Shown here: positions 1-62,897 of the stretch, one piece after another
Numbering within the stretch: position 1 is the stretch's first letter
How the letters are laid out: each line of letters opens with the position of its first letter
Sequence record: NC_041919.1
Origin: Escherichia phage HP3
Length of the DNA stretch: 64,000 bases
Reading direction: 5' to 3' (one strand)
Translations under genes and position numbers: made by a program
The notes under the pieces: model-generated
Database searches by the model: none
Told to the model about the DNA's origin: nothing
Seen by the model: only the letters and a program-made list of their open reading frames with translations

Positions 1-54
1 GTATTTGTATAATAGACCTACTAGTGGTGATAATATTTTCCAAGGAGCATTCTA

Positions 55-321
55 ATGTTTGTTGTTCACACTATTTATGAAAATGAAGGTAATACTACAC
101 GTGATTACGGTCACGTAAATCAATTTTTTAGATGCAATCCAGAATTCCGAGCTCAAAAAGACGAACGAATTTTTAAAAAATGTGTAGAGCAAGGTTTCAT
201 TTACGTCAAGCACTGGATGCAAGGAAATAAAGTTAGAACCACATATCATAAGTCTTTGACTGAGCTTAATGATGAATTGATTTATAATAGAGCTGTAAAC
301 CAAACTCTGAAGGATGAATAA
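55..321 (+). CDS. hypothetical small protein immediately upstream of DNA ligase (30.x-like position)
   Basis: 88-aa ORF; its TAA stop overlaps the ligase ATG (TAATG), suggesting translational coupling; no motif recognised. Confidence 0.45.
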   Translation: MFVVHTIYENEGNTTRDYGHVNQFFRCNPEFRAQKDERIFKKCVEQGFIYVKHWMQGNKVRTTYHKSLTELNDELIYNRAVNQTLKDE

Positions 322-1784
322 TGATTCTTAAAATTCTGAACGAAATAGCATCTATTGGTTCAACTAAGCAGAAGCAAGCAATTCTTGAAAAGAATAAAGA
401 TAATGAATTGCTTAAACGAGTATATCGTCTGACTTATTCTCGTGGGTTACAGTATTATATCAAGAAATGGCCTAAACCGGGTATTGCTACCCAGAGTTTT
501 GGAATGTTGACTCTTACCGATATGCTTGACTTCATTGAATTCACGTTAGCTACTCGGAAATTGACTGGAAATGCTGCAATTGAGGAATTAACTGGATATA
601 TTACTGACGGTAAAAAAGATGATGTTGAAGTTTTGCGTCGGGTGATGATGCGAGACCTTGAATGCGGTGCTTCAGTATCTATTGCAAACAAAGTTTGGCC
701 AGGTTTAATTCCTGAACAACCTCAAATGCTTGCAAGTTCTTATGATGAAAAAGGCATTAATAAGAATATCAAATTTCCAGCCTTTGCCCAGTTAAAAGCT
801 GATGGAGCTCGGTGTTTTGCTGAAGTTAGAGGTGATGAATTAGATGATGTTCGTCTTTTATCACGAGCTGGTAATGAATATCTAGGATTAGATCTTCTTA
901 AGGAAGAGTTAATCAAAATGACTGCAGAAGCTCGCCAGATTCATCCAGAAGGTGTGTTAATTGATGGCGAATTGGTATACCATGAGCAAGTTGAAAAGGA
1001 GCCAGAAGGCCTAGATTTTCTTTTTGATGCTTATCCTGAAATTAGTAAAGCTAAAGAATTCGCCGAAGTAGCTGAATCACGTACTGCATCTAATGGCATC
1101 GCCAATAAATCTTTAAAGGGAACCATTTCTGAAAAAGAAGCACAATGCATGAAGTTTCAGGTCTGGGATTATGTCCCGTTGGTAGAAATATACGGTCTTC
1201 CTGCATTTCGTTTGAAATATGATGTACGTTTTTCTAAACTAGAACAAATGACATCAGGCTATGATAAAGTAATTTTAATTGAAAACCAGGTAGTAAATAA
1301 CCTAGATGAAGCTAAGGTAATTTATAAAAAGTATATTGACCAAGGTCTTGAAGGTATTATTCTCAAAAATATCGATGGATTATGGGAAAATGCTCGTTCA
1401 AAAAATCTTTATAAATTTAAAGAAGTAATTGATGTTGATTTAAAAATTGTAGGAATTTATCCTCACCGTAAAGACCCTACTAAAGCGGGTGGATTTATTC
1501 TTGAATCAGAGTGTGGAAAAATTAAGGTAAATGCTGGTTCAGGCTTAAAAGACAAAGCCGGCGTAAAATCGCATGAACTTGACCGTACTCGCATTATGGA
1601 AAACCAAAATTATTATATTGGAAAAATTCTAGAGTGCGAATGCAACGGTTGGTTAAAATCTGATGGCCGCACTGATTACGTTAAATTATTTCTTCCGATT
1701 GCGATTCGTTTACGTGAAGATAAAACTAAAGCTAATACATTCGAGGATGTATTTGGTGATTTTCATGAGGTAACTGGTTTATGA
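321..1784 (+). CDS. 30: ATP-dependent DNA ligase (T4 gp30)
   Basis: 487 aa, same length as T4 DNA ligase; N-terminus MILKILNEIASIGSTKQKQAILEKNKDNELLKRVYRLTYSRG matches my recollection of T4 ligase; adenylation motif KADGARCF (KxDG); synteny with alt. Confidence 0.95.
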   Translation: MILKILNEIASIGSTKQKQAILEKNKDNELLKRVYRLTYSRGLQYYIKKWPKPGIATQSFGMLTLTDMLDFIEFTLATRKLTGNAAIEELTGYITDGKKDDVEVLRRVMMRDLECGASVSIANKVWPGLIPEQPQMLASSYDEKGINKNIKFPAFAQLKADGARCFAEVRGDELDDVRLLSRAGNEYLGLDLLKEELIKMTAEARQIHPEGVLIDGELVYHEQVEKEPEGLDFLFDAYPEISKAKEFAEVAESRTASNGIANKSLKGTISEKEAQCMKFQVWDYVPLVEIYGLPAFRLKYDVRFSKLEQMTSGYDKVILIENQVVNNLDEAKVIYKKYIDQGLEGIILKNIDGLWENARSKNLYKFKEVIDVDLKIVGIYPHRKDPTKAGGFILESECGKIKVNAGSGLKDKAGVKSHELDRTRIMENQNYYIGKILECECNGWLKSDGRTDYVKLFLPIAIRLREDKTKANTFEDVFGDFHEVTGL

Positions 1785-1969
1785 AAGCTTACTTAGAAAC
1801 AATTGTCATTGCTCAAAAAGAAGGTGGAGATGTTTCTACTTCTGTATCACAAGTCATTCTCGAATTTGTAGATGCATACGCTTATAATAAATTTACAGAA
1901 ACATTTGATGCCTATGAAAAAGGACCAAAGTTTGAAATATATCGTACTCTCTTACCACTAGATTACTAA
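1781..1969 (+). CDS. hypothetical small protein
   Basis: 62-aa ORF overlapping the ligase stop by ATGA; followed by a hairpin and a late-promoter box. Confidence 0.4.
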   Translation: MKAYLETIVIAQKEGGDVSTSVSQVILEFVDAYAYNKFTETFDAYEKGPKFEIYRTLLPLDY

Positions 1970-1970
1970 A

Positions 1971-1988
1971 GGCCTTCGGGCCTTTAAT
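1971..1988 (+). terminator. GC hairpin ggccttcgggcc followed by T-rich tract
   Basis: UUCG-type tetraloop hairpin directly after the ORF stop. Confidence 0.5.
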
Positions 1989-1990
1989 TT

Positions 1991-1998
1991 TATAAATA
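1991..1998 (+). promoter_or_regulatory. T4 late promoter box TATAAATA upstream of alt
   Basis: exact TATAAATA about 20 nt upstream of the ATG at 2019. Confidence 0.55.
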
Positions 1999-2018
1999 GA
2001 ATAAACACTAGAGAGGCT

Positions 2019-4076
2019 ATGATGGAACTTATTACAGAATTATTTGACGAAGATACTACTCTTCCGATTACAAACTTAAATCCAAAGAAGAAAATACCGC
2101 AAATTTTTTCAGTTCATGTTGATGATGCAATTGAACAACCAGGCTTTCGTTTATGTACCTATACATCTGGAGGTGATACTAATCGCGATTTAAAAATGGG
2201 CGATAAAATGATGCATATTGTTCCTTTTACATTAACTGCTAAAGGTTCAATTGCTAAATTAAAAGGTCTTGGTCCAAGCCCAATTAATTATATCAATTCA
2301 GTTTTTACTGTTGCAATGCAAACAATGCGTCAGTATAAAATTGATGCTTGTATGCTTCGTATTCTTAAGTCTAAAACCGCTGGTCAAGCTCGACAAATTC
2401 AAGTTATTGCTGATAGACTTATCCGTAGTCGTTCAGGTGGCAGATACGTCCTTCTTAAGGAACTCTGGGATTATGATAAAAAGTATGCATATATTCTTAT
2501 ACATCGCAAAAATGTATCACTAGAAGACATTCCAGGAGTTCCGGAAATTAGTACCGAGCTCTTTACTAAAGTTGAATCGAAGGTCGGTGATGTTTATATC
2601 AATAAAGATACCGGAGCTCAAGTAACCAAAAATGAGGCAATTGCAGCATCTATTGCACAAGAAAATGATAAACGTTCTGACCAAGCTGTAATCGTTAAAG
2701 TTAAAATTTCCCGTAGAGCAATTGCACAAAGTCAGTCATTGGAATCTTCTAGATTTGAAACACCGATGTTTCAAAAATTTGAGGCTTCAGCGGCAGAATT
2801 AAATAAACCAGCGGACGCGCCTTTAATTTCTGATTCTAATGAATTAACGGTAATTTCTACTTCAGGATTTGCACTAGAGAATGCTCTTAGCAGTGTTACA
2901 GCTGGGATGGCATTCAGAGAAGCTTCTATAATTCCTGAAGATAAAGAATCCATTATTAATGCAGAAATAAAAAATAAAGCTTTAGAAAAATTACGAAAAG
3001 AATCTATTACTTCAATAAAAACTTTAGAAACTATTGCTTCTATCGTCGATGATACTTTAGAAAAATATAAAGGTGCTTGGTTTGAAAGAAATATTAACAA
3101 ACATTCGCATTTAAATCAAGATGCTGCGAATGAGTTAGTACAAAATTCTTGGAATGCAATAAAAACAAAGATTATTCGAAGAGAATTGCGTGGATATGCT
3201 CTTACCGCTGGATGGTCACTACATCCTATAGTCGAAAATAAAGATTCATCTAAATACACACCAGCACAAAAACGCGGAATTCGTGAATACGTAGGTTCAG
3301 GATATGTAGACATAAATAATGCTCTTTTGGGATTATATAATCCAGATGAGCGTACAAGTATTTTGACAGCATCTGACATAGAAAAAGCTATTGATAATTT
3401 AGATTCAGCCTTTAAAAATGGTGATCGATTGCCAAAAGGTATTACTTTATATCGTTCACAGCGAATGTTACCTTCAATATATGAAGCATTGGTAAAAAAT
3501 CGAGTTTTTTATTTTAGAAATTTTGTATCAACATCATTATATCCAAACATTTTTGGTACTTGGATGACTGATTCAGCTGTTGGTGTTTTACCAGATGAAA
3601 AGCGTCTAAACATTTCTATCGATAAAAATGATGAAGGGCTTGTTAATTCTAGCGATAATTTAGTCGGAATTGGATGGGTTATTACTGGGGCTGATAAAGT
3701 CAATGTTGTTTTACCCGGTGGAAGTTTAGCGCCTTCAAATGAAATGGAAGTTATTTTGCCACGTGGATTAATGGTCAAAGTTAATAAAATAACTGATGCA
3801 TCTTACAATGATGGAACAGTTAAAACTAACAACAAGCTTATTCAAGCTGAAGTTATGACCACGGAAGAGCTCACCGAATCGGTAATCTATGACGGAGACC
3901 ATTTAATGGAAACTGGTGAATTGGTTGCAATGACAGGTGATATTGAAGTAGAAGACAGAGTTGACTTTGCATCATTTGTTTCATCAAATGTTAAACAGAA
4001 AGTAGAATCATCTCTTGGAATTATTGCGTCTTGTATAGATATTGCAAACATGCCTTACAAGTTCGTTCAAGGATAA
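2019..4076 (+). CDS. alt: Alt-family ADP-ribosyltransferase, packaged and injected (copy 1)
   Basis: 685 aa (T4 Alt is about 682 aa); N-terminus MELITELFD...; conserved core CTYTSGGDTN...KMMHIV...QYKIDAC; ART-like R/STS/E elements (LYRSQ, FVSTSL, EVILPRG); position between gene 30 and gene 54. Confidence 0.85.
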   Translation: MMELITELFDEDTTLPITNLNPKKKIPQIFSVHVDDAIEQPGFRLCTYTSGGDTNRDLKMGDKMMHIVPFTLTAKGSIAKLKGLGPSPINYINSVFTVAMQTMRQYKIDACMLRILKSKTAGQARQIQVIADRLIRSRSGGRYVLLKELWDYDKKYAYILIHRKNVSLEDIPGVPEISTELFTKVESKVGDVYINKDTGAQVTKNEAIAASIAQENDKRSDQAVIVKVKISRRAIAQSQSLESSRFETPMFQKFEASAAELNKPADAPLISDSNELTVISTSGFALENALSSVTAGMAFREASIIPEDKESIINAEIKNKALEKLRKESITSIKTLETIASIVDDTLEKYKGAWFERNINKHSHLNQDAANELVQNSWNAIKTKIIRRELRGYALTAGWSLHPIVENKDSSKYTPAQKRGIREYVGSGYVDINNALLGLYNPDERTSILTASDIEKAIDNLDSAFKNGDRLPKGITLYRSQRMLPSIYEALVKNRVFYFRNFVSTSLYPNIFGTWMTDSAVGVLPDEKRLNISIDKNDEGLVNSSDNLVGIGWVITGADKVNVVLPGGSLAPSNEMEVILPRGLMVKVNKITDASYNDGTVKTNNKLIQAEVMTTEELTESVIYDGDHLMETGELVAMTGDIEVEDRVDFASFVSSNVKQKVESSLGIIASCIDIANMPYKFVQG

Positions 4077-4079
4077 ATC

Positions 4080-6137
4080 ATGGAACTTATTACAGAATTA
4101 TTTGACGGCGCTTCGGCGCCGGTTGTTAACTTAAATCCTAAGCATAAAATACCACAAATTTTTGCTATTCAAGCCGGCGAAGAAAGCGTGCTTCCTGGAT
4201 TTAGATTTTGTACATACACCTCTGGTGGTGATACGAATAAAAACGTTAAGCCAGGCGATAAAATGATGCATATCGTAATGATAGGTGTTAATGAGAAACT
4301 ATCATTAGTTAAGCTTAAAAACTTGGGTGGAAATCCAATTGGTGTCATTAATGCCGTTTTTGATACTGCTCTTCAAACAATGAAACAGTATAAAATCGAC
4401 GCATGCCTATTCCGCGTACTAAAAAGTAAAACAAATGGCGCAGCTCGTCAAATGCAAGTTATTGCTGACCGTTTAGTACGTACTAAAGGAGCAGGTCGAT
4501 ATGTTCTTTTAAAGGAAATCTGGGACTATGATAAGAAATATGCATATATTATGGTTTACCGTAAAAATGCCAATTTAGAAGACATTCCAGGTGTACCTCC
4601 TATTTCAACTGAGTTATTCACAAAAGTTGAATCAAAGGTCGGTGATGTTTATGTAGACGTTAAAACAGGAAATGCTGTTCCTAAAGCTGTTGCTGTTGCT
4701 GCTTCTATTGCTTTAGAAAATGATAAGCGCACGGACCAAGCTGTTATTCAGAAAACTAAAATTAGTCGTCGATTAGCAGCACAAGCTCAATATTCTACTG
4801 TTGATGCTTCACTTCAGGGTGATAGCTTCGCTGCTAAGAAATATCAAGAGTTTGAATCTAAAGTTCCGGTATATAAAGCAGAAGGACCAATGAACTCTGG
4901 CGTTATTCAGATTGGTTCAAACTTCAGCAAAGGAGCTATCGGTGGTATGAGAAGTGCTTCTCGTTTTAAATCTAACGATTATGAACTAGAAAGCTTCCGA
5001 AATCATATTGCATTAGCCCATGCACGTTTACGTGATCCATCTATCAAGTTGCAGAGCGATATAACATATCAAGGTTCTCAAGAATATTTAAAGAATAAAG
5101 AATTCTTTGATTATAAAACTGATAAAATTTTAAGCGATCTTGCTGATATTAATATTTCTAATAGCTTTGATGTTATTAAGAAAATTATTAATGATTTAGT
5201 TAAAGGTTCTAAAACCACACCAGATGAAAAGACAGCTATTATTCAATTTGTAATGAATGGCATTTATAAATTGATTAATGAATCTGCTGCCCAGGCATAT
5301 GAATACGCAAGCACCGAAGTAGCTCCAAAAGGACTGACTCAGGCTGAATCTGATGTAATTGAAGATTATTGTGCAGATTCATATGTTGAAATGAACTCGT
5401 TCCTTTTGGGTAAACCAGATTCTACCCGTGAAGAATACATGGAACGAGCTATTAAGCACATCGAGACGTTAGATTCTGCCTTTGCCAAAGGATCAGTTCT
5501 TCCTCCAGGAACTACACTTTACCGTGGGCAAGAAGTTACCTTTAAAACTTTGCGTCATAACATTGAAAATAAAATGTTCTATTTCAAGAACTTCGTATCC
5601 ACATCGCTTAAACCAAATATCTTCGGTGAGCATGGTAAAAACTATATGGCTCTAGATGATTCCGGCGCAGTATTTTCTGGTGAAGGAGAAGGTTCCGTTG
5701 ATGCAGAAGATTTGATGCATATGGGTAGTCATTCTACATATGCTAATGAAGATGCAGAAACTAGCGTGGGTATGGTAATTAAAGGAGCTGAGCGAATCAA
5801 AGTTATCGTTCCAGGTCATTTATCAGGATTTCCATCAGAAGCTGAAGTTATTCTACCACGTGGAATTTTACTGAAGATTAATAAAGTAAGTACGTACTTT
5901 ATGAAAGAAACTGCTTATAACAAGTATCTAATCGAAGGTACAATCGTTCCTCCTTCTGAACAATTAGAAGAATCAGTATATGATGGAGACCATCTAATGG
6001 AAACTGGTGAAGTTCGTCCAATGGCTGGATTTAATCAATTCCTTGTAGAAGAATCAAAAGAAGAGGAAAATGAAGTTTCTCAAATCTTGACTTCTTTGGT
6101 TAACATCAACGGAATGTCTAAAAAGTTCAAAATGTAG
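4080..6137 (+). CDS. Alt-family ADP-ribosyltransferase paralog (copy 2), divergent central and C-terminal regions
   Basis: 685 aa; N-terminal ~200 aa clearly homologous to copy 1 (MELITELFD, CTYTSGGDTNK, KMMHIV, QYKIDAC, GRYVLLKE-WDYDKKYAYI, LEDIPGVP-ISTELFTKVESKVGDVY); retains LYRGQ, FVSTSL, EVILPRG; no late promoter of its own, only 3 nt from copy 1 stop. Confidence 0.8.
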   Translation: MELITELFDGASAPVVNLNPKHKIPQIFAIQAGEESVLPGFRFCTYTSGGDTNKNVKPGDKMMHIVMIGVNEKLSLVKLKNLGGNPIGVINAVFDTALQTMKQYKIDACLFRVLKSKTNGAARQMQVIADRLVRTKGAGRYVLLKEIWDYDKKYAYIMVYRKNANLEDIPGVPPISTELFTKVESKVGDVYVDVKTGNAVPKAVAVAASIALENDKRTDQAVIQKTKISRRLAAQAQYSTVDASLQGDSFAAKKYQEFESKVPVYKAEGPMNSGVIQIGSNFSKGAIGGMRSASRFKSNDYELESFRNHIALAHARLRDPSIKLQSDITYQGSQEYLKNKEFFDYKTDKILSDLADINISNSFDVIKKIINDLVKGSKTTPDEKTAIIQFVMNGIYKLINESAAQAYEYASTEVAPKGLTQAESDVIEDYCADSYVEMNSFLLGKPDSTREEYMERAIKHIETLDSAFAKGSVLPPGTTLYRGQEVTFKTLRHNIENKMFYFKNFVSTSLKPNIFGEHGKNYMALDDSGAVFSGEGEGSVDAEDLMHMGSHSTYANEDAETSVGMVIKGAERIKVIVPGHLSGFPSEAEVILPRGILLKINKVSTYFMKETAYNKYLIEGTIVPPSEQLEESVYDGDHLMETGEVRPMAGFNQFLVEESKEEENEVSQILTSLVNINGMSKKFKM

Positions 6138-6197
6138 TTTACAAGTTCCTTATGTTGTGTTATAGTAGTCTTACTGACATAACATGAGGAACACAAA

Positions 6198-6488
6198 ATG
6201 AAATCTTCTTTGCGCTTTTTAGGTCAAGAACTTGTAGTTGAAGGCGTTATTCCTGCTGATAATGCTTTTAATGAAGCAGTTTACGATGAATTTATTAAAA
6301 TTTTTGGAACAGATAAAAAGTTCGGAATTTTTCCTTCTGAAAATTTTTCAAAGCCAGAACAGACTGAAAGCATTTTCCAAGGTGTAGTAACAGGTAAATT
6401 TGAGTCAGAAGCTCCGGTAAAAATTGAAGTTTATATTGAAGACAGTTTAGTTGCTTCAGTTGCTGCTTTTATTTCATTCCGTAAATAA
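6198..6488 (+). CDS. hypothetical small protein downstream of the alt pair
   Basis: 96-aa ORF with a purine-rich RBS (acatgaggaacacaaaATG). Confidence 0.5.
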   Translation: MKSSLRFLGQELVVEGVIPADNAFNEAVYDEFIKIFGTDKKFGIFPSENFSKPEQTESIFQGVVTGKFESEAPVKIEVYIEDSLVASVAAFISFRK

Positions 6489-6494
6489 AAATAT

Positions 6495-6512
6495 GGGGAC
6501 CGAAAGGTCCCC
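6495..6512. terminator. bidirectional hairpin ggggaccgaaaggtcccc between convergent genes
   Basis: perfect GC stem with GAAA loop between the 96-aa ORF stop (6488) and the gene 54 stop (6517). Confidence 0.55.
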
Positions 6513-6516
6513 ATTG

Positions 6517-7482
6517 TTATATTGCTCCTAATATTTTACTTTGCGAATTGACAATTCCTGTCATAGTATTAATGTTTGAAATGCTTCCTGCAGTTCCACC
6601 TAATCTACTGAGTCGTGAAAGCGAATTAGATAGTCCAGTAACACCTCCACTATTTCCGAGAACGCTTTGAATACCATTTATAGCAGCAGATTCAAGCCAT
6701 TCAAGCGCAGCTTGCCTATCAACTGCTCCAGCCTGCATGACTCTATATGCAAAAGTAACATCAAATGTAGTTATTTGGTTATCTCCATCATATGATAACT
6801 CAGGAGCGCTCACTGACACTGGAATGCATCCGGTGAACATTACCGCAGTATGAGGTAATCCATTGCGAGAATGAAGATTAACCTGAATATCTGCCTCGAC
6901 ATCTTGTGGCAAAGCACGCAGTCCAGTTACTGGGTCTTGAACAGCGTTAACCCAGTCTTGCATTGCACGATAGTTACAAGCTTCTGAATCCATTCTAAAT
7001 GAAATAACCAAAGGGTCTAATTCTCTCCCAGTTATACGAATATTAGGAGAGTTGTAGTTCCAGTCAGTTTCATAGGATAATCTATTCTCTGGCATTTTTA
7101 CAGAGTATATCATCAATCCAGATGAGTTATATGCCATGTTAAAGAAGTCAATTAAATATGTACCAACTGTAAATGAGCCTAATAAACTTTGAACTGTACG
7201 TTGACTCATGGCACCAATAAGATATTTACTAACCCCTGATTTTCTTATCAGTTTTTGTGTGCCAGCAGTAATTAGCGTGGTAATTCCCTGATTAATATCG
7301 CCTTGAGACAATCCTAACCAGTCTGAATTTAGACCCAAGTTATTATAAGAAAAGTTGCTAATTGAACTTATCAACGAAGAGCTTTTAGTTGATGGAGTTG
7401 TTGCAAAAACGCAGCTAAACATATTATTACGTTGGAAATCTGCGTTTATTGCTTGATTATTAAATTCCTCTAAAGAATACAT
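6517..7482 (-). CDS. 54: baseplate tail-tube initiator (gp54)
   Basis: 321 aa (T4 gp54 about 320); synteny 54-48-29. Confidence 0.85.
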   Translation of the reverse strand: MYSLEEFNNQAINADFQRNNMFSCVFATTPSTKSSSLISSISNFSYNNLGLNSDWLGLSQGDINQGITTLITAGTQKLIRKSGVSKYLIGAMSQRTVQSLLGSFTVGTYLIDFFNMAYNSSGLMIYSVKMPENRLSYETDWNYNSPNIRITGRELDPLVISFRMDSEACNYRAMQDWVNAVQDPVTGLRALPQDVEADIQVNLHSRNGLPHTAVMFTGCIPVSVSAPELSYDGDNQITTFDVTFAYRVMQAGAVDRQAALEWLESAAINGIQSVLGNSGGVTGLSNSLSRLSRLGGTAGSISNINTMTGIVNSQSKILGAI

Positions 7483-8576
7483 TAAAAAGTCCCCGCATAT
7501 AAAGAAGCACGATTTAACGTGATAATTTCTCTCATAGTAATCTCAAGAGTAAATGTACTAGGGAGGTTTGGAGCAATAGCTAATCCGTTAAAATTACCAT
7601 TCGGAGTTTTATCAAATCTAATACTTTGAATTTGACACGGTCCAAACACTTCTGTTTTTCCGTCAAATTTAGAAGTTGCGCCAAAGTTTTTAACCATCCA
7701 AATTGTCGGGTTTGAAACTACAAGAACGTTAGTTAAACTCGATGTCATTTTCTCAAATAACGTCTTATTTTTAACTGCATCTTCTGGAGTTAATGGCTCA
7801 ATAAAAGTAGAACGGTACCACTCATCTAAATATCCTTTTATTTCAGCAGCATATTGAGATTTACCAGTTTCACCGTAAGAAAAATAGTTAAAATACTGAT
7901 AGATATTAATAATAGCCATTAAATCTTCTGTTGAGCGCGGAGTCAAATCCCAAGTGAACACTTTAGTTCTATTTTCAGCACCGCCGTACATGCTTCTGGC
8001 TGTCGTATAAATCTGTTCATTATTATCAGCCATTATACCTTGTGTTATACTTTCCAGCGCTCCAAATACTGCGGTTGAAGCCATATTGCTTAGCACACCA
8101 GTAGCAGTACCTCCACCTTTTGTAATAAGACTATCTTGAACATCATTAAATCTATGTGATGACGTATCGACGTCAGATTTAGATCTAGGTAAAAGAATAT
8201 TTGCAACAGGAACTTTACTTATTGTTCTTGAATTATTATCTGATATTAGTCCATTTGATAGTTTTGATACTGTATTACTGATAGTGTTTCTGGCTGTACG
8301 TAAAATACTCGAAGATGAAGAAGAGTAGTTAGATCTCATCGTTCTAAGACTTCCAGAATCCCTAGATGACATATTGTATGCAGTAAATAATAATCCATTC
8401 TTATATAGATCTGTTACCTGGAAGTCCCCTGTAGTGTCATTACCACTAGCACGCCCAGTTGGAAACTGGGCTGTGTATGTTTTAGTTCCTACTTCTGATT
8501 TAGTACTCTGTCCGGCTGAAATTGTTTCACCGGACTTTTTAATTAAATCAGCAGTTATTTCTTTAACAATTGCCAT
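7482..8576 (-). CDS. 48: baseplate tail-tube cap (gp48)
   Basis: 364 aa, same as T4 gp48; synteny. Confidence 0.85.
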   Translation of the reverse strand: MAIVKEITADLIKKSGETISAGQSTKSEVGTKTYTAQFPTGRASGNDTTGDFQVTDLYKNGLLFTAYNMSSRDSGSLRTMRSNYSSSSSSILRTARNTISNTVSKLSNGLISDNNSRTISKVPVANILLPRSKSDVDTSSHRFNDVQDSLITKGGGTATGVLSNMASTAVFGALESITQGIMADNNEQIYTTARSMYGGAENRTKVFTWDLTPRSTEDLMAIINIYQYFNYFSYGETGKSQYAAEIKGYLDEWYRSTFIEPLTPEDAVKNKTLFEKMTSSLTNVLVVSNPTIWMVKNFGATSKFDGKTEVFGPCQIQSIRFDKTPNGNFNGLAIAPNLPSTFTLEITMREIITLNRASLYAGTF

Positions 8577-8584
8577 ATTATTCC

Positions 8585-10357
8585 TTAATTAACTCCCGTC
8601 GCACCAAATACACCAGGAGCAGTTGTGCTTGTGACAGGTGTCATATTATGAACGACAGTATTTTTCTTAATAACATTATTAGTATTATTGATTGAAGGAG
8701 ATGCTTGTTGAACAGGAGCTTGTTGTGCTTTGTTCTTTTCAATCACCTGGACCTGTTTTGCTTCTGGTGATTTAGCAGAAGTTTCAGGTTTTGCTTCAGG
8801 TTGATTTTTCTTGAGCTCTTGATAAGTGGCATCAATTTTAGCAAATCTAGAAGCAAGTTCTTTTTTAACTGCTGGTGAATTATTTAAATCCGGATCATTC
8901 ATTCGTTTTTTAAGGTCTTCATGAGCAGCTTCAATTGATTTAACTGTCGAGTCTTTGCTCATATCAGCTGAATCAGCATATTTTTCAAAACGAATCATCG
9001 CAGCACGAGCTTCATTAGCTTTCATTAAAGCATTTTTTCTTTCTTCCGGTGAAAGTTGTTTTAATTTTTCTTCTTCTGCTGCACGTTCTTCGTCAGTAGT
9101 CAATGCTTCTTTATTATCTACACCACGAATCCAGTTAGATGCACGAGTTTTCCAGTTCGCAATTTTGTCTAATCCTTCTGCTATTGGGCCAAGATCATCA
9201 TTCATTCGTTTATCTTGATAATTTGCTACTTTTTCTTGGTCTTCTTTATTAAGAGATGCTCCAGTAGAATTTTGGAAATTTTCTAATGCTCTTCCTTCTA
9301 CTTCATCAGCAGTATCCTTCATGCCAGGAATGACTCGAAGAATTGCTGCAGATAATTTAGCCATACCTAATTGAATAAGCTCTCCTAAATTATAAAGAAC
9401 ACTTCCAAGCCCTTCAACAATAGCTACTGTTAATCCGCCCCAATCTCCAGCTTCCCAGAACTTTTTAATTTCATCAATAGATTCAAAGATGCTTTGTAAT
9501 AAAGGGCCCCAAGTTCCTGTTTCGCTTGAGAAAGTTTTAAAATCAGTGCTAAATAAATCCCAGGCTTTTGAAAATTTATCTGACCAGTATTTAAAATGAA
9601 CCATCAGCAGGTCTATTCCAATAACAACAGCCATTATCAATGCAACCATTTTAGCAGCTTCAATAGCAGCACTGACGGTATACTTAAATAGCATGCTAGA
9701 TATTTTATCAGTAATTGAAATAGATTTCTTAAATCCGAAATCAACTGTCTTTGTTAATTTATCTAAAGCTTGAGATAATTTTAAGTTAAATGCGTCTCTT
9801 TTTTGCTTCTCTTCTGGAGACTCTTGTTTTGGTTCAATTGGCTGAGGAGTAGGGAAAAAATCAGCATCAGGATCATTATTAACTGCTTCAGGAGCCGGTA
9901 ATAAAGGACCCACAGATTCAGCTGTATCATCCTCGACGACTTTAACAGGAATAGCATTTTCTACTACTGCTAAACTCGTTCCAGTCTGTTGAATTCCAGC
10001 TGTTTGAATTTTTTGTTCTAATAAACTCGTTAATTTATCTAATTTGCTTCCGAGTGATTCGCCTATTTCTTTATTGATATTATTGCCAATTTCAACAGTC
10101 TCGGCAATTAACTCAGAACCAGCAGTAGTATCACTCACTGCGCTTTCTACATTGTCAATTGCTCCAATTATTTCATTCGATTTTTCTTCGACAGTTTGAG
10201 CAATTAATTCAGAAGCAGCTTGAGCATCATCCAATTTCGTAGATATATCGTTAAGCCCAGATAAAGTGTTGGAAGCGGATTTAGCCGCTTCCTGTGTTGG
10301 TTTATTATCTGAAATAACTTTTCTACGCATCGTTTGCATTTCTTGTGGCTTTTTCAT
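8585..10357 (-). CDS. 29: tail length tape-measure protein (gp29)
   Basis: 590 aa, same as T4 gp29; synteny. Confidence 0.85.
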   Translation of the reverse strand: MKKPQEMQTMRRKVISDNKPTQEAAKSASNTLSGLNDISTKLDDAQAASELIAQTVEEKSNEIIGAIDNVESAVSDTTAGSELIAETVEIGNNINKEIGESLGSKLDKLTSLLEQKIQTAGIQQTGTSLAVVENAIPVKVVEDDTAESVGPLLPAPEAVNNDPDADFFPTPQPIEPKQESPEEKQKRDAFNLKLSQALDKLTKTVDFGFKKSISITDKISSMLFKYTVSAAIEAAKMVALIMAVVIGIDLLMVHFKYWSDKFSKAWDLFSTDFKTFSSETGTWGPLLQSIFESIDEIKKFWEAGDWGGLTVAIVEGLGSVLYNLGELIQLGMAKLSAAILRVIPGMKDTADEVEGRALENFQNSTGASLNKEDQEKVANYQDKRMNDDLGPIAEGLDKIANWKTRASNWIRGVDNKEALTTDEERAAEEEKLKQLSPEERKNALMKANEARAAMIRFEKYADSADMSKDSTVKSIEAAHEDLKKRMNDPDLNNSPAVKKELASRFAKIDATYQELKKNQPEAKPETSAKSPEAKQVQVIEKNKAQQAPVQQASPSINNTNNVIKKNTVVHNMTPVTSTTAPGVFGATGVN

Positions 10358-10887
10358 TCAAATAATCCAATAATATTACCAATTCCAGTTATTGGACCAT
10401 TAGGGCCAGGAATTGCTAAAGTTGTAAAAATATCATTTGCCCATTTTAAAACGAATGCTGGCATCTCAAGAAAATTAATTTCTTTAACTTCATCATTGAC
10501 CTTAAGCAAGCATTTGGATAACATATCGCTCACAGTTAAAAATTGTTCAAATTTTCCAGGCGGTCTAAAATAAAATGTATTTCCTTGGTATTGAAATTCT
10601 AATCTTTGGCATACATAAACATCATTAATGTCATAAGTATAGCCATCTATTTCTTTACGAGATTTAATCTTTCCATTAAATTCCAATAAATGAATAGAAA
10701 CGAAATCAACTTCTGCCGGTGACAAATTCGGACAAATAGAATCAATAAGAAGTTTTAAATTTTCATCAGGGCCTTTAACATCTTTTAAAATGTTATAATG
10801 TTTAAGACCCATTTTAGGAATAGAAACTTCTTTATTGCTTATTGGAAGAACTACTTTCTTCAGTGGTAGTATCAGATTTAAATTCAT
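10354..10887 (-). CDS. 28: baseplate hub distal subunit (gp28)
   Basis: 177 aa, same as T4 gp28; ATGA overlap with gene 29. Confidence 0.8.
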
Positions 10888-12007
10888 TTTTAACCTTAAC
10901 TGGGTCTATTGTTTCCAGTTTCGTTGCATTAGTGAACATATATAGATGAGTTACTGAATTATTATTTGATAATTCATGGATAACTTCATCAACGTAAAAT
11001 TCTGTTTTAAATTGGTTTTTACTATCATTAAAAATAATTTTAACACCAGGAGTCAAGTTAAAATTACCGACAGTAGAACATTTAGCATAGCCATCATATT
11101 GCGCCATAGTTTGAAGACGAATAGCTTCTTCATAGCCATTCCTATAAGTCATTTCAGAATAAGCACCTGACCTTGACACTACAATAGAGTTTTCACCCTT
11201 TCCTGTAGTAATCATTGGTAGTGAAGAATCTAAAAACGAATGAGCATAGATAGTAGCATTTTTCATTGGATCACGTTTATGCGGGTTTGATTTAGTCAAC
11301 CAAACAAAATCATATGCCAATGGATATTTTAATTCTTGGATGAATTGACCTATTAAAGATGGCTCACCTACAATCATTGGATATGGTTCTTGATTTATCA
11401 TCATATCATAGTCCATCATGTTAACTCCCATGATGTCTTGCCACACAAATACAAATTTGTCACTTCCTACAGCTAGAGCAACTTCTCTTACATAGGACAA
11501 ATAATTTTCAAATGTACTAGTCCATGGAATATCAGGAACATAAGCATTTATAGCATTTATTGCTGGAGTTAATAATGTGCGGTCTTGATAAATGACACCA
11601 AGCATTTCTTTTATAGATTCACCTGCATCAGGGAAAAATGGTCTACCAAATTTAAGATTTTCTATAGAATGAATAGTTCCCAATTCAATAGCAATGATGT
11701 TATCGCCTTTTGAATCTACTGACACGGAAAAATGCTTGCATCCATAAATTCGTGTTTTAACATTATTAATATCGTTTGCATTAGCTACAGAAATTTGAAT
11801 TATTTCATTTCCATCCATTTTTGTGTGGATATTTTTAGAATCATAAAACTGCAGCATTCCTTCATTTCGACCATAAAGAGAGTCACGCATAGTTAATGTG
11901 GTAATAGTAGCAGCTAATTCAACAAATCTATTATTACTCCAAGCGTCATAACTCTCAAATAATTTAACGCTGAGATTTGGATATCCAGGACGTTGTAACA
12001 TACTCAT
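10832..12007 (-). CDS. 27: baseplate hub subunit (gp27)
   Basis: 391 aa, same as T4 gp27; synteny. Confidence 0.85.
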
Positions 12008-12756
12008 TGATGTTTATCCTTCTCAATCAGTTTTAATACGAATCCGCGCTCGGCAGGAATCATTTTCATTATTGAATTTAAGCTATAATTACTTTTTACA
12101 AGCGTGTGATTAATTTGATAAAAAGTAAATATCTCATCTGGATTAACTAATAGCTTAAACACATCTACTATATCAGTGTATTTTTTAATGTACTTATCAC
12201 AACACGACATGTGCAATGTTAAATTAATAGGATTCATTGCATCGAGAATTTTTTCTAATGTTTCTATCTCGATGGCGTCAACAAGTTCTATTTGACTCGA
12301 TTCACTAATTTCCTTCCAATCATACCACATTTCATCTACTTGAACAGAATGAATATTTTCAGTAATCATCTTTGCTTTATTTTCATAAAACTCAGAAGGA
12401 AAATTTAATTTAATTTTAACATTAGCTACATCAAAAATAGGTTCCTTTAATTCTTTTTGATATATTTCAAATGGAACTGTCTTTTCTTTTTTACATTTTG
12501 GACATACAAATGTGACTGGTACTTTAGTTTTACCTATTGAACCTACAAATACCTGCAAAAATATAAATGGTTGCCAAGTCTTCGGATAGTCTCCAAAATA
12601 ATCATCAATTAAATCAGTAATTATTTCTTTTTGTTCTTGTGGTGACCGATGTTCTATATCGTTTCGAACTAACAAAAAATCTCGATAATCTTCTACCGTA
12701 AATGGTTTAAAACGATGAACACCATCTGGTAATTTACAACGAATAATGTTTGCCAT
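12004..12756 (-). CDS. 51: baseplate hub assembly catalyst (gp51)
   Basis: 250 aa (T4 gp51 about 249); overlaps gene 27 start by 4 nt. Confidence 0.8.
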
Positions 12757-12773
12757 AGATGCTCCTTTTATTC

Positions 12774-12785
12774 TATTTATAAATA
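12774..12785. promoter_or_regulatory. overlapping divergent late promoter boxes for gene 51 (minus) and gene 26 (plus)
   Basis: tatttataaata contains TATTTATA (reverse complement TATAAATA) and TATAAATA sharing the central bases. Confidence 0.45.
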
Positions 12786-50889: not shown

Positions 50890-50913
50890 TATAAATATAT
50901 TATCTATTTATAA
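50890..50913. promoter_or_regulatory. divergent late promoter boxes (TATAAATA plus strand for gene 4; TATTTATA for gene 53)
   Basis: tataaata at 50890-50897 and tatttata at 50906-50913 in the 53/4 divergent intergenic region. Confidence 0.45.

Positions 50914-62366: not shown

Positions 62367-62897
<531 letters not shown>

Follow-up and report, generated by a model that had tools for sequence, protein, structure and literature searches.

A second full-length, selectively maintained Alt-family ADP-ribosyltransferase gene in Escherichia phage HP3 probably encodes a capsid-delivered effector

The window analysed here, a stretch of 64,000 nucleotides (nt) from Escherichia phage HP3 (NC_041919.1), carries two adjacent open reading frames (ORFs) on the same strand, at 2019–4076 and 4080–6137, which a preliminary description made from the sequence alone had taken for homologous members of the Alt family of ADP-ribosyltransferases (ARTs). 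This assignment is borne out by an alignment at 41% identity from end to end (E=4e-157, BLASTP), and we refer to the two products as Alt1 and Alt2 (Table 1). The phage belongs to Tequatrovirus; window positions 1700–6600 are 100% identical to the HP3.1 record OK275722, and the window is collinear with the phage T4 genome in reversed orientation. Alt1 is 98.5% identical to T4 Alt. A length of 685 residues had been given for both proteins, which is correct for Alt2 but not for Alt1: the latter most likely begins with its second ATG (2022, against 2019 in the ORF list) and so comprises 684 residues, since this start matches the MELITE start of T4 Alt and is better spaced from the GAGG ribosome-binding site that lies 5 nt upstream.

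Table 1. Features of the alt locus in the window, with the Alt1-N::Alt2 chimeric genes found in other sequences (positions of the latter refer to the sequence named; aa, amino acids; bp, base pairs)
Feature	Position	Strand	Remarks
gene 30, DNA ligase	321-1784		
alt.1	1781-1969		62 aa, between ligase and Alt1; Pfam PF24647 (Phage_blade), full length, E=2e-29
Terminator-like hairpin	1967-1986	+	after alt.1, directly 5' of the alt operon; 8-bp stem with 4 G-C pairs, then T-run
T4-type late promoter TATAAATA	1991-1998	+	only exact plus-strand copy within 1-12,777
Alt1	2022-4076	+	684 aa, T4 Alt ortholog
Alt1 N-domain	2022-2735	+	aa 1-238
Alt1 N-terminal gp21 motif	2031-2039	+	I4-T5-E6
Alt1 variable helical centre	2736-3257	+	aa 239-412
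Alt1 ART domain	3258-3878	+	aa 413-619
Alt1 catalytic residues	3453-3749	+	R478 (3453-3455), S503-T-S505 (3528-3536), E574-M-E576 (3741-3749)
Alt1 C-terminal gp21 motif	3870-3878	+	L617-T618-E619
Alt1 C-propeptide	3879-4073	+	aa 620-684
Alt2 ribosome-binding site AGGA	4070-4073	+	inside the final Alt1 codons
Alt2	4080-6137	+	685 aa, second full-length Alt paralog
Alt2 N-domain	4080-4793	+	aa 1-238
Alt2 N-terminal gp21 motif	4089-4097	+	I4-T5-E6; MELITELFD same as in Alt1
A5 run, A4 in T4	4239-4243	+	base-by-base comparison with NC_000866
Left 9-bp direct repeat CTAAAAAGT	4419-4427	+	
Alt2 segment absent from T4	4428-6117	+	1,690 bp
Alt2 variable helical centre	4794-5339	+	aa 239-420
Alt2 ART domain	5340-5972	+	aa 421-631
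Alt2 catalytic residues	5523-5846	+	R482 (5523-5525), S507-T-S509 (5598-5606), E587-A-E589 (5838-5846)
Alt2 F584, ADP-ribosylating turn-turn (ARTT) loop	5829-5831	+	
Alt2 predicted C-terminal gp21 motif	5964-5972	+	L629-E630-E631; aligned with LTE-619 of Alt1/T4
Alt2 C-propeptide	5973-6134	+	aa 632-685
Right 9-bp direct repeat CTAAAAAGT	6109-6117	+	
alt.-3	6198-6488		96 aa, DUF5498; ortholog of T4 alt.-3, downstream of Alt2
Late genes 54, 48, 29		-	converging
Alt1-N::Alt2 chimera, ECML-134	3052-5112 (L011)		cultured phage
Alt1-N::Alt2 chimera, PST	3052-5112 (L012)		cultured phage
Alt1-N::Alt2 chimera	4001-6061 (L009)		metagenome contig
Alt1-N::Alt2 chimera	4001-6055 (L010)		metagenome contig

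Identity between the two proteins was measured region by region in 30-column alignment windows. It amounts to ~68% over the N-terminal residues 1–238 and to ~15–20%, with many gaps, over residues ~239–450; the catalytic domain is ~40% identical (~40–55% near the catalytic motifs), and identity drops again in the loop that leads from FVSTSL to ExE. At the C-terminal end the block (L)xE/S-x-YDGDxLMETGE (ES-x-YDGDHLMETGE) is strongly conserved between Alt1 and Alt2. The homologous N-terminus noticed earlier is thus a real feature, although it extends over ~238 residues and not ~200, and the C-terminal end is more than a divergent region, as it holds the conserved YDGDxLMETGE block. AlphaFold2 models of Alt2 and Alt1 (predicted local distance difference test, pLDDT, of 84.1 and 86.6, respectively; predicted template modelling score, pTM, of 0.80 for both) show the same order of elements: an alpha/beta N-domain is followed by an all-helical centre (~68% helix, no strand) and by an ART core rich in beta structure, from which a linker modelled at low confidence leads to a terminal helix. 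Neither protein matched any NCBIfam family. A few weak matches were obtained in the central regions: Alt2 residues 337–386 to Pfam T3SchapCesA (E=0.022; 15 bits, where the cut-off is 29) and to PDB entry 1xou_B (E=0.36), and Alt1 residues 278–356 to the ThsB/TIR-like model of PADLOC (E=0.003, 14.7 bits, below threshold). We judged all three to be chance matches, since they are sub-threshold and fall in helical, low-information regions.

The ART domain is intact in both copies. Pfam PF03496 (ADPrib_exo_Tox) matches Alt1 at 123.4 bits and Alt2 at 72.3 bits, against a gathering cut-off of 23.4; the phrog_802 profile covers Alt2 residues 1–685 (E=2e-255), and PF26846 (Tevenvirinae_ADPRT) and PF03496 are precomputed matches on its close homologs. 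The ART-like elements listed in the preliminary description were found in both proteins, as LYRSQ (476–480), FVSTSL (501–506) and EMEVILPRG (574–582) in Alt1 and as LYRGQ (480–484), FVSTSL (505–510) and EAEVILPRG (587–595) in Alt2. The family is small: when 1.84 billion representative proteins were searched exhaustively, 112 of them matched at E<1e-3, and 57 passed the stricter limit of E<1e-30. In an alignment of 66 members, which are ~18–75% identical to Alt2, the only invariant columns are (Alt2 numbering) Met1, Tyr430, Asp465, Arg482, Ser507, Glu587, Glu589, Arg594 and Gly595, so that the R, S, E and E catalytic columns are the same in 66 of 66. The family profile reaches the R-S-E toxins by sequence, at E down to 1.5e-11, and Alt2 has the ART fold of this clade, predicted with confidence. 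Neither the fold nor the catalytic Glu is therefore missing from the second copy, whether judged by Pfam, by the family alignment or by AlphaFold2. By these residues Alt2 belongs to the R-S-ExE type. Enzymes of this type usually act on arginine, and the ExE motif is typical of protein ARTs with that specificity (PMC8120803).

Of the 66 homologs, 51 have Tyr, Phe or His in the ARTT loop, three residues ahead of the first Glu of this motif, and Alt2 has Phe584. In C3-like toxins the ARTT loop contributes to substrate recognition. The T4-type allele of Alt1 has Pro at the same position (residue 571, 3732–3734), the sole case among the 66, and the T2-type allele has Ile. T4 Alt is thus an outlier of its family at this site, and results obtained with it may be untypical of the family.

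Both proteins carry sites for the prohead protease gp21. According to mass spectrometry of T4, gp21 cuts Alt after ITE-6 and LTE-619, removing 6 and 63 residues, respectively (PMC5694885; PMC9026906), and leaves a mature protein of 68.2 kDa (PMC5694885). The predicted mature form of Alt1, residues 7–619, has a mass of 68.16 kDa, in agreement with the T4 value. In Alt2 the predicted C-terminal motif LEE-631 is followed by Ser, and the predicted mature protein (residues 7–631) is of ~69 kDa. Among the 66 homologs the Glu of the N-terminal site is kept in 60 (with L or I at the -2 position in 55) and that of the C-terminal site in 59 (L, I or V at -2 in 60). Two conserved prohead-protease sites would be pointless for a cytoplasmic enzyme, and we regard them as the strongest indirect argument that Alt2 is present in the capsid. 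The statement made earlier that the N-terminal ~200 residues are needed for packaging was an assumption; the literature consulted documents short propeptides and cleavage sites only (PMC5694885, PMC9026906).

The arrangement of the two genes would suit joint late expression. T4 alt is a late gene (PMC9697503), and a consensus match to the T4-type late promoter precedes Alt1 (Table 1). Consensus matching returned no exact late-promoter copy between Alt1 and Alt2, and the stop codon of Alt1 and the start codon of Alt2 are 3 nt apart. From this anatomy we infer that Alt1 and Alt2 are co-transcribed from the promoter at 1991–1998. In the window as a whole there are 25 copies of TATAAATA, where shuffled sequence would give 9.6, and some of them overlap or pair closely on the opposite or the same strand (for example at 12774–12785, 50890–50912 and 62369–62389); this agrees with the clustering of late structural genes in T4-type genomes.

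Comparison with T4 (NC_000866) explains what became of the second copy in that phage. Nucleotide identity is 97% from the start of the window to 4427 and resumes at 6118, and the intervening segment, which ends with the right-hand one of two CTAAAAAGT repeats, is absent from T4, where a single CTAAAAAGT copy is retained. The deletion takes out Alt2 codons ~117–679 and leaves codons 1–116, and within these the loss of 1 nt from the A5 run causes the frameshift that splits the remnant into alt.-1 and alt.-2. The PHROGs of alt.-1 and alt.-2 score 138 and 131 bits to Alt2 as against 78 and 70 bits to Alt1. On these combined grounds of alignment, repeats, run length and profile scores, T4 alt.-1 (NP_049810) and alt.-2 (NP_049809) are a decayed, truncated Alt2. 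The T4 record annotates the two ORFs as an old 'duplication of the first part of gene alt', an incomplete description, as the comparison reveals a paralog that was once full-length.

Selection on Alt2 was assessed in eight phages (HP3.1, Sf21, T2, RB32, P922, UFV09, ZN18 and sb2). The ORF is intact in all eight, and the proteins are 97.5–99.3% identical to HP3.1 Alt2. With synonymous divergence (dS) of up to 0.24, the ratio of non-synonymous to synonymous divergence (dN/dS) lies between 0.035 and 0.057, and the corresponding polymorphism ratio (pN/pS) is 0.016 in the N-domain, 0.081 in the centre, 0.049 in the ART domain and 0.026 in the C-tail. Alt2 is under strong purifying selection in all domains; at the level of sequence and structural model it is an intact, selectively maintained Alt-family ADP-ribosyltransferase, which bears out the preliminary interpretation in part. 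Between Alt1 and Alt2 themselves dS is ~1.5, and as synonymous sites are saturated the duplication must be old: the locus is an ancient tandem duplication. Centres of the Alt2 type also occur beyond Tequatrovirus, for example in proteins named for JS10 and KM16 (45–50% identical).

The second copy is also common. The Alt2 segment missing from T4 is found in 405 phage records, 400 of them with ≥80% coverage at ≥90% nt identity and including T2, RB32, RB14 and RB7, and the T4 deletion junction in 91; both counts contain entries present in RefSeq as well as GenBank, and laboratory T4 sequenced more than once. Most sequenced Tequatrovirus genomes have a full-length second copy, which is present in about three-quarters of the matched records. 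It is usually annotated as Alt-like: 'Alt-like RNA polymerase ADP-ribosyltransferase' is the name of both genes in RefSeq, the record of Sf21 describes the second as 'distinct from T4 Alt ... N-terminus is similar to phage T4 Alt.-1', and the RB32 record calls it alt.-2, 'similar to alt'. HP3.1's own record labels both genes merely as hypothetical or phage proteins. Nolan et al. 2006 (PMC1524935) reported that alt paralogs are duplicated among T4-like phages, in 44RR at full length, and comparative surveys have located the Alt/VIP2 ARTs in this genomic context, which is conserved (PMC5512222, PMC9503650). As a genomic feature, the second alt gene is already known and ordinary for the genus, so that the novelty entertained in the preliminary description, which was unsure of the number of full-length copies in T4, falls away: T4 has one full-length alt and an Alt2 remnant, and two copies, already annotated, are what most Tequatrovirus genomes have.

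Variation within the family is concentrated in particular segments. Over the 66 homologs, conservation is 0.45–0.59 in the N-domain and 0.4–0.66 in the ART core but low in the helical centre (0.12–0.23) and in the STS-to-ExE loop (0.17), and many distant homologs align to Alt2 in two stretches, the N-domain and the ART domain, with nothing alignable between. This pattern fits a constant delivery scaffold with what may be exchangeable target-recognition parts. Alt1 occurs as two alleles, a T4-type of 682–684 residues (HP3.1, Sf21, sb2 and T4) and a T2-type of 697 residues (T2, RB32, P922, UFV09 and ZN18), which agree at 239 of 240 positions over residues 1–240 and are near-identical from ~600 to the end, yet share only ~25–50% identity where the helical centre and the loop from STS to ExE are concerned (window 2736–3878; 72% overall). 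As aligned, the two alleles show a mosaic gene in which cassettes have been swapped and the remainder is conserved. Genome counts for each allele, taken at 80% coverage, fall too near that threshold to be relied upon. The N-domain may also carry other cargo. Clear Alt-type N-domains (E ~1e-34 to 1e-37) are present in three further proteins: P0217 (541 residues) has no detectable ART domain, P0226 (1142 residues) has a weakly ART-like region and, beyond it, ~675 further residues at the C-terminus, and P0199 (485 residues) has a degenerate ART with Lys replacing the catalytic Arg.

A third state of the locus is seen in genomes whose single alt gene is a chimera that joins the N-terminal part of Alt1 to Alt2 (Alt1-N::Alt2, Table 1). 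At least five crossovers can be distinguished, near residues 55, 100, 145, 195 and 222, varying by genome, and the two that were checked (~55 and ~195) coincide with runs of 14–27 nt identical between Alt1 and Alt2. Unequal recombination that took place repeatedly between the N-terminal regions of the tandem genes would account for such chimeras. We rejected the possibility of an assembly artefact because the cultured phages ECML-134 and PST have chimeras with differing crossovers; it is further disfavoured by the length of the longest identical N-terminal runs, only 14–27 nt.

Turning to the neighbouring genes, the start of alt.1 overlaps the 3' end (stop) of the ligase gene by 4 nt. The hairpin that follows alt.1 lies where Nolan et al. 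2006 reported a conserved terminator 5' of alt (PMC1524935). On the other side of the operon, alt.-3 has its own early-type promoter match at 6138–6166 (GTTTACA ... TATAGT, with TG), and a hairpin at 6493–6514 forms a bidirectional terminator common to alt.-3 and gene 54. In T4, mutations that extend the C-terminus of alt.-3 lead to escape from the CmdTAC defence system (PMC11618068).

The reading we favour, to which we give a probability of roughly two in three, is that Alt2 is a functional, late-expressed mono-ADP-ribosyltransferase of the R-S-ExE type and a second member of the T-even Alt family. As the N-domain, both gp21 motifs and, probably, late co-expression have been retained, it is best read as a second effector, probably packaged in the capsid and injected. 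We postulate that Alt1 and Alt2, given their gene arrangement, would be transcribed jointly from the late promoter and translated in tandem, and that Alt2 would be built into the prohead core like T4 Alt, via its basic, conserved N-domain and/or the terminal propeptides. Cleavage by gp21 at the two motifs, after ITE-6 and LEE-631 and by analogy with T4 Alt, would yield the ~69 kDa enzyme, which would be ejected with the DNA into the next host. There, as its fold and catalytic residues suggest, it would move ADP-ribose from nicotinamide adenine dinucleotide (NAD+) onto host proteins. The choice of target could be set by the helical centre (residues 239–420), the STS-to-ExE loop (residues 518–560) and Phe584 of the ARTT loop. 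A different target range fits the fact that the centre and active-site loops of Alt2 are unlike those of Alt1, and the target sets of the two enzymes probably overlap only in part. A stronger version, in which Alt2 is a distinct capsid-delivered effector whose substrates, perhaps a component of host defence or of translation, are not the ones that T4 Alt modifies, and the Alt scaffold is a cassette-swapping chassis, we put forward tentatively, at slightly worse than even odds.

Several points weigh against this proposal. The T4 deletion shows Alt2 to be dispensable in at least one lineage, and ECML-134 and PST lack the catalytic part of Alt1, so either effector alone is tolerated. That the targets probably differ is a conclusion drawn solely from divergence in regions which govern specificity in C3-like toxins. 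Finally, our literature search returned no proteomic or biochemical paper on Alt2 that addresses its presence in virions, its function or its targets.

Since either effector can be lost, partial redundancy is possible, and the rival that survives best, though we consider it unlikely, takes Alt2 for a copy that mostly duplicates the work of Alt1, as a back-up or to raise dosage; it would be packaged and injected as Alt1 is and act on essentially the same host proteins (such as RNA polymerase alpha Arg265, EF-Tu and MazF). Overall architecture, catalytic motif and processing sites are indeed shared by the two proteins, T4 Alt is reported to modify at least 27 E. coli proteins (PMC8120803), leaving room for overlap, and the reciprocal losses, of Alt2 in the T4 lineage and of the catalytic part of Alt1 in ECML-134 and PST, show that a phage with either copy alone is viable. 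Viability after a single loss says little, however, as Alt is non-essential in T4 (PMC9026906). Moreover, a dN/dS of ~0.04 in all domains, after dS of ~1.5, is unexpected for a redundant copy, and the divergence between Alt1 and Alt2 is concentrated in the centre, the STS-to-ExE loop and the ARTT loop, the hypervariable regions of the family.

Less probable still is an active but unpackaged Alt2, which would work late in the producing cell, act on RNA or DNA, or attach NAD-capped RNA in the manner of ModB. There are precedents in T4, where ModA and ModB are non-packaged ART paralogs and ModB attaches RNA chains (PMC10468400, PMC9503650). A 238-residue N-domain at 68% identity, the same MELITE propeptide and the aligned LxE/S site, on the other hand, are sensible only for a gp21 substrate of the prohead; Alt2 has no promoter of its own and lies within the predicted late operon of Alt1; and a non-protein substrate would sit poorly with an ExE motif typical of arginine-specific protein ARTs (PMC8120803). 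That Alt2 is a catalytically dead or decaying duplicate, at most a structural core component, is very improbable despite its pseudogenization in the T4 lineage, given that the ORF is intact in all eight genomes, the segment missing from T4 is present in ~400 records, the catalytic residues are invariant, pN/pS in the ART domain is 0.049 and the ART fold is confidently predicted.

The textbook picture of a single injected ADP-ribosyltransferase stems from T4, which is a natural alt2 knock-out. Two copies under strong selection are carried by about three-quarters of the matched records, among them T2 and several therapy candidates such as HP3. If Alt2 is indeed a second injected effector, sixty years of work on T4 have missed an injected enzyme that these T-even-type phages possess. 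The targets of Alt2 would complete the inventory of T-even proteins delivered at infection, and could bring to light an activity in counter-defence or host takeover that T4 lacks. The constancy of the N-domain and propeptides and the variability of the centre and loops suggest a natural chassis for cargo in T4-type capsids; if this is correct, the Alt scaffold (N-domain and two gp21 propeptides) would be a delivery chassis with at least three cassettes, namely T4-type Alt1, T2-type Alt1 and Alt2.

Among characterized systems the closest is T4 Alt (gpAlt, P12726), a capsid-packaged, injected NAD+:arginine ADP-ribosyltransferase whose ortholog is Alt1. Alt2 resembles it in length, four-part architecture, R-STS-ExE residues, both gp21 motifs, the predicted late operon and its position between gene 30/alt.1 and alt.-3/gene 54, and differs from it in overall identity (41%), an unalignable centre (residues 239–420), the length and sequence of the STS-to-ExE loop, and the residue at ARTT position -3, which is Phe (the family consensus) in Alt2 and the atypical Pro in T4 Alt. 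The full-length alt.-2 or Alt-like genes of T2, RB32, RB14, RB7, Sf21 and others occupy the same position and show no material difference from Alt2. The R-S-E toxins (C3-like and VIP2/iota-like, among them Vis, C3bot, Certhrax, CDTa and SpvB) are 13–26% identical and have no counterpart of the 238-residue N-domain, the helical centre or the gp21 propeptides; they rely on secretion or on a binary toxin pore, whereas Alt proteins are delivered by a phage capsid. In logic, Alt proteins are akin to the internal proteins (IPs) of T-even phages, of which IPI is an anti-restriction protein (PMC3012670, PMC9958956): both combine a conserved targeting and processing element with fast-diversifying cargo injected with the DNA, although in the IPs this element is an N-terminal targeting sequence of 10–20 residues and in Alt proteins a large conserved N-domain with two propeptides.

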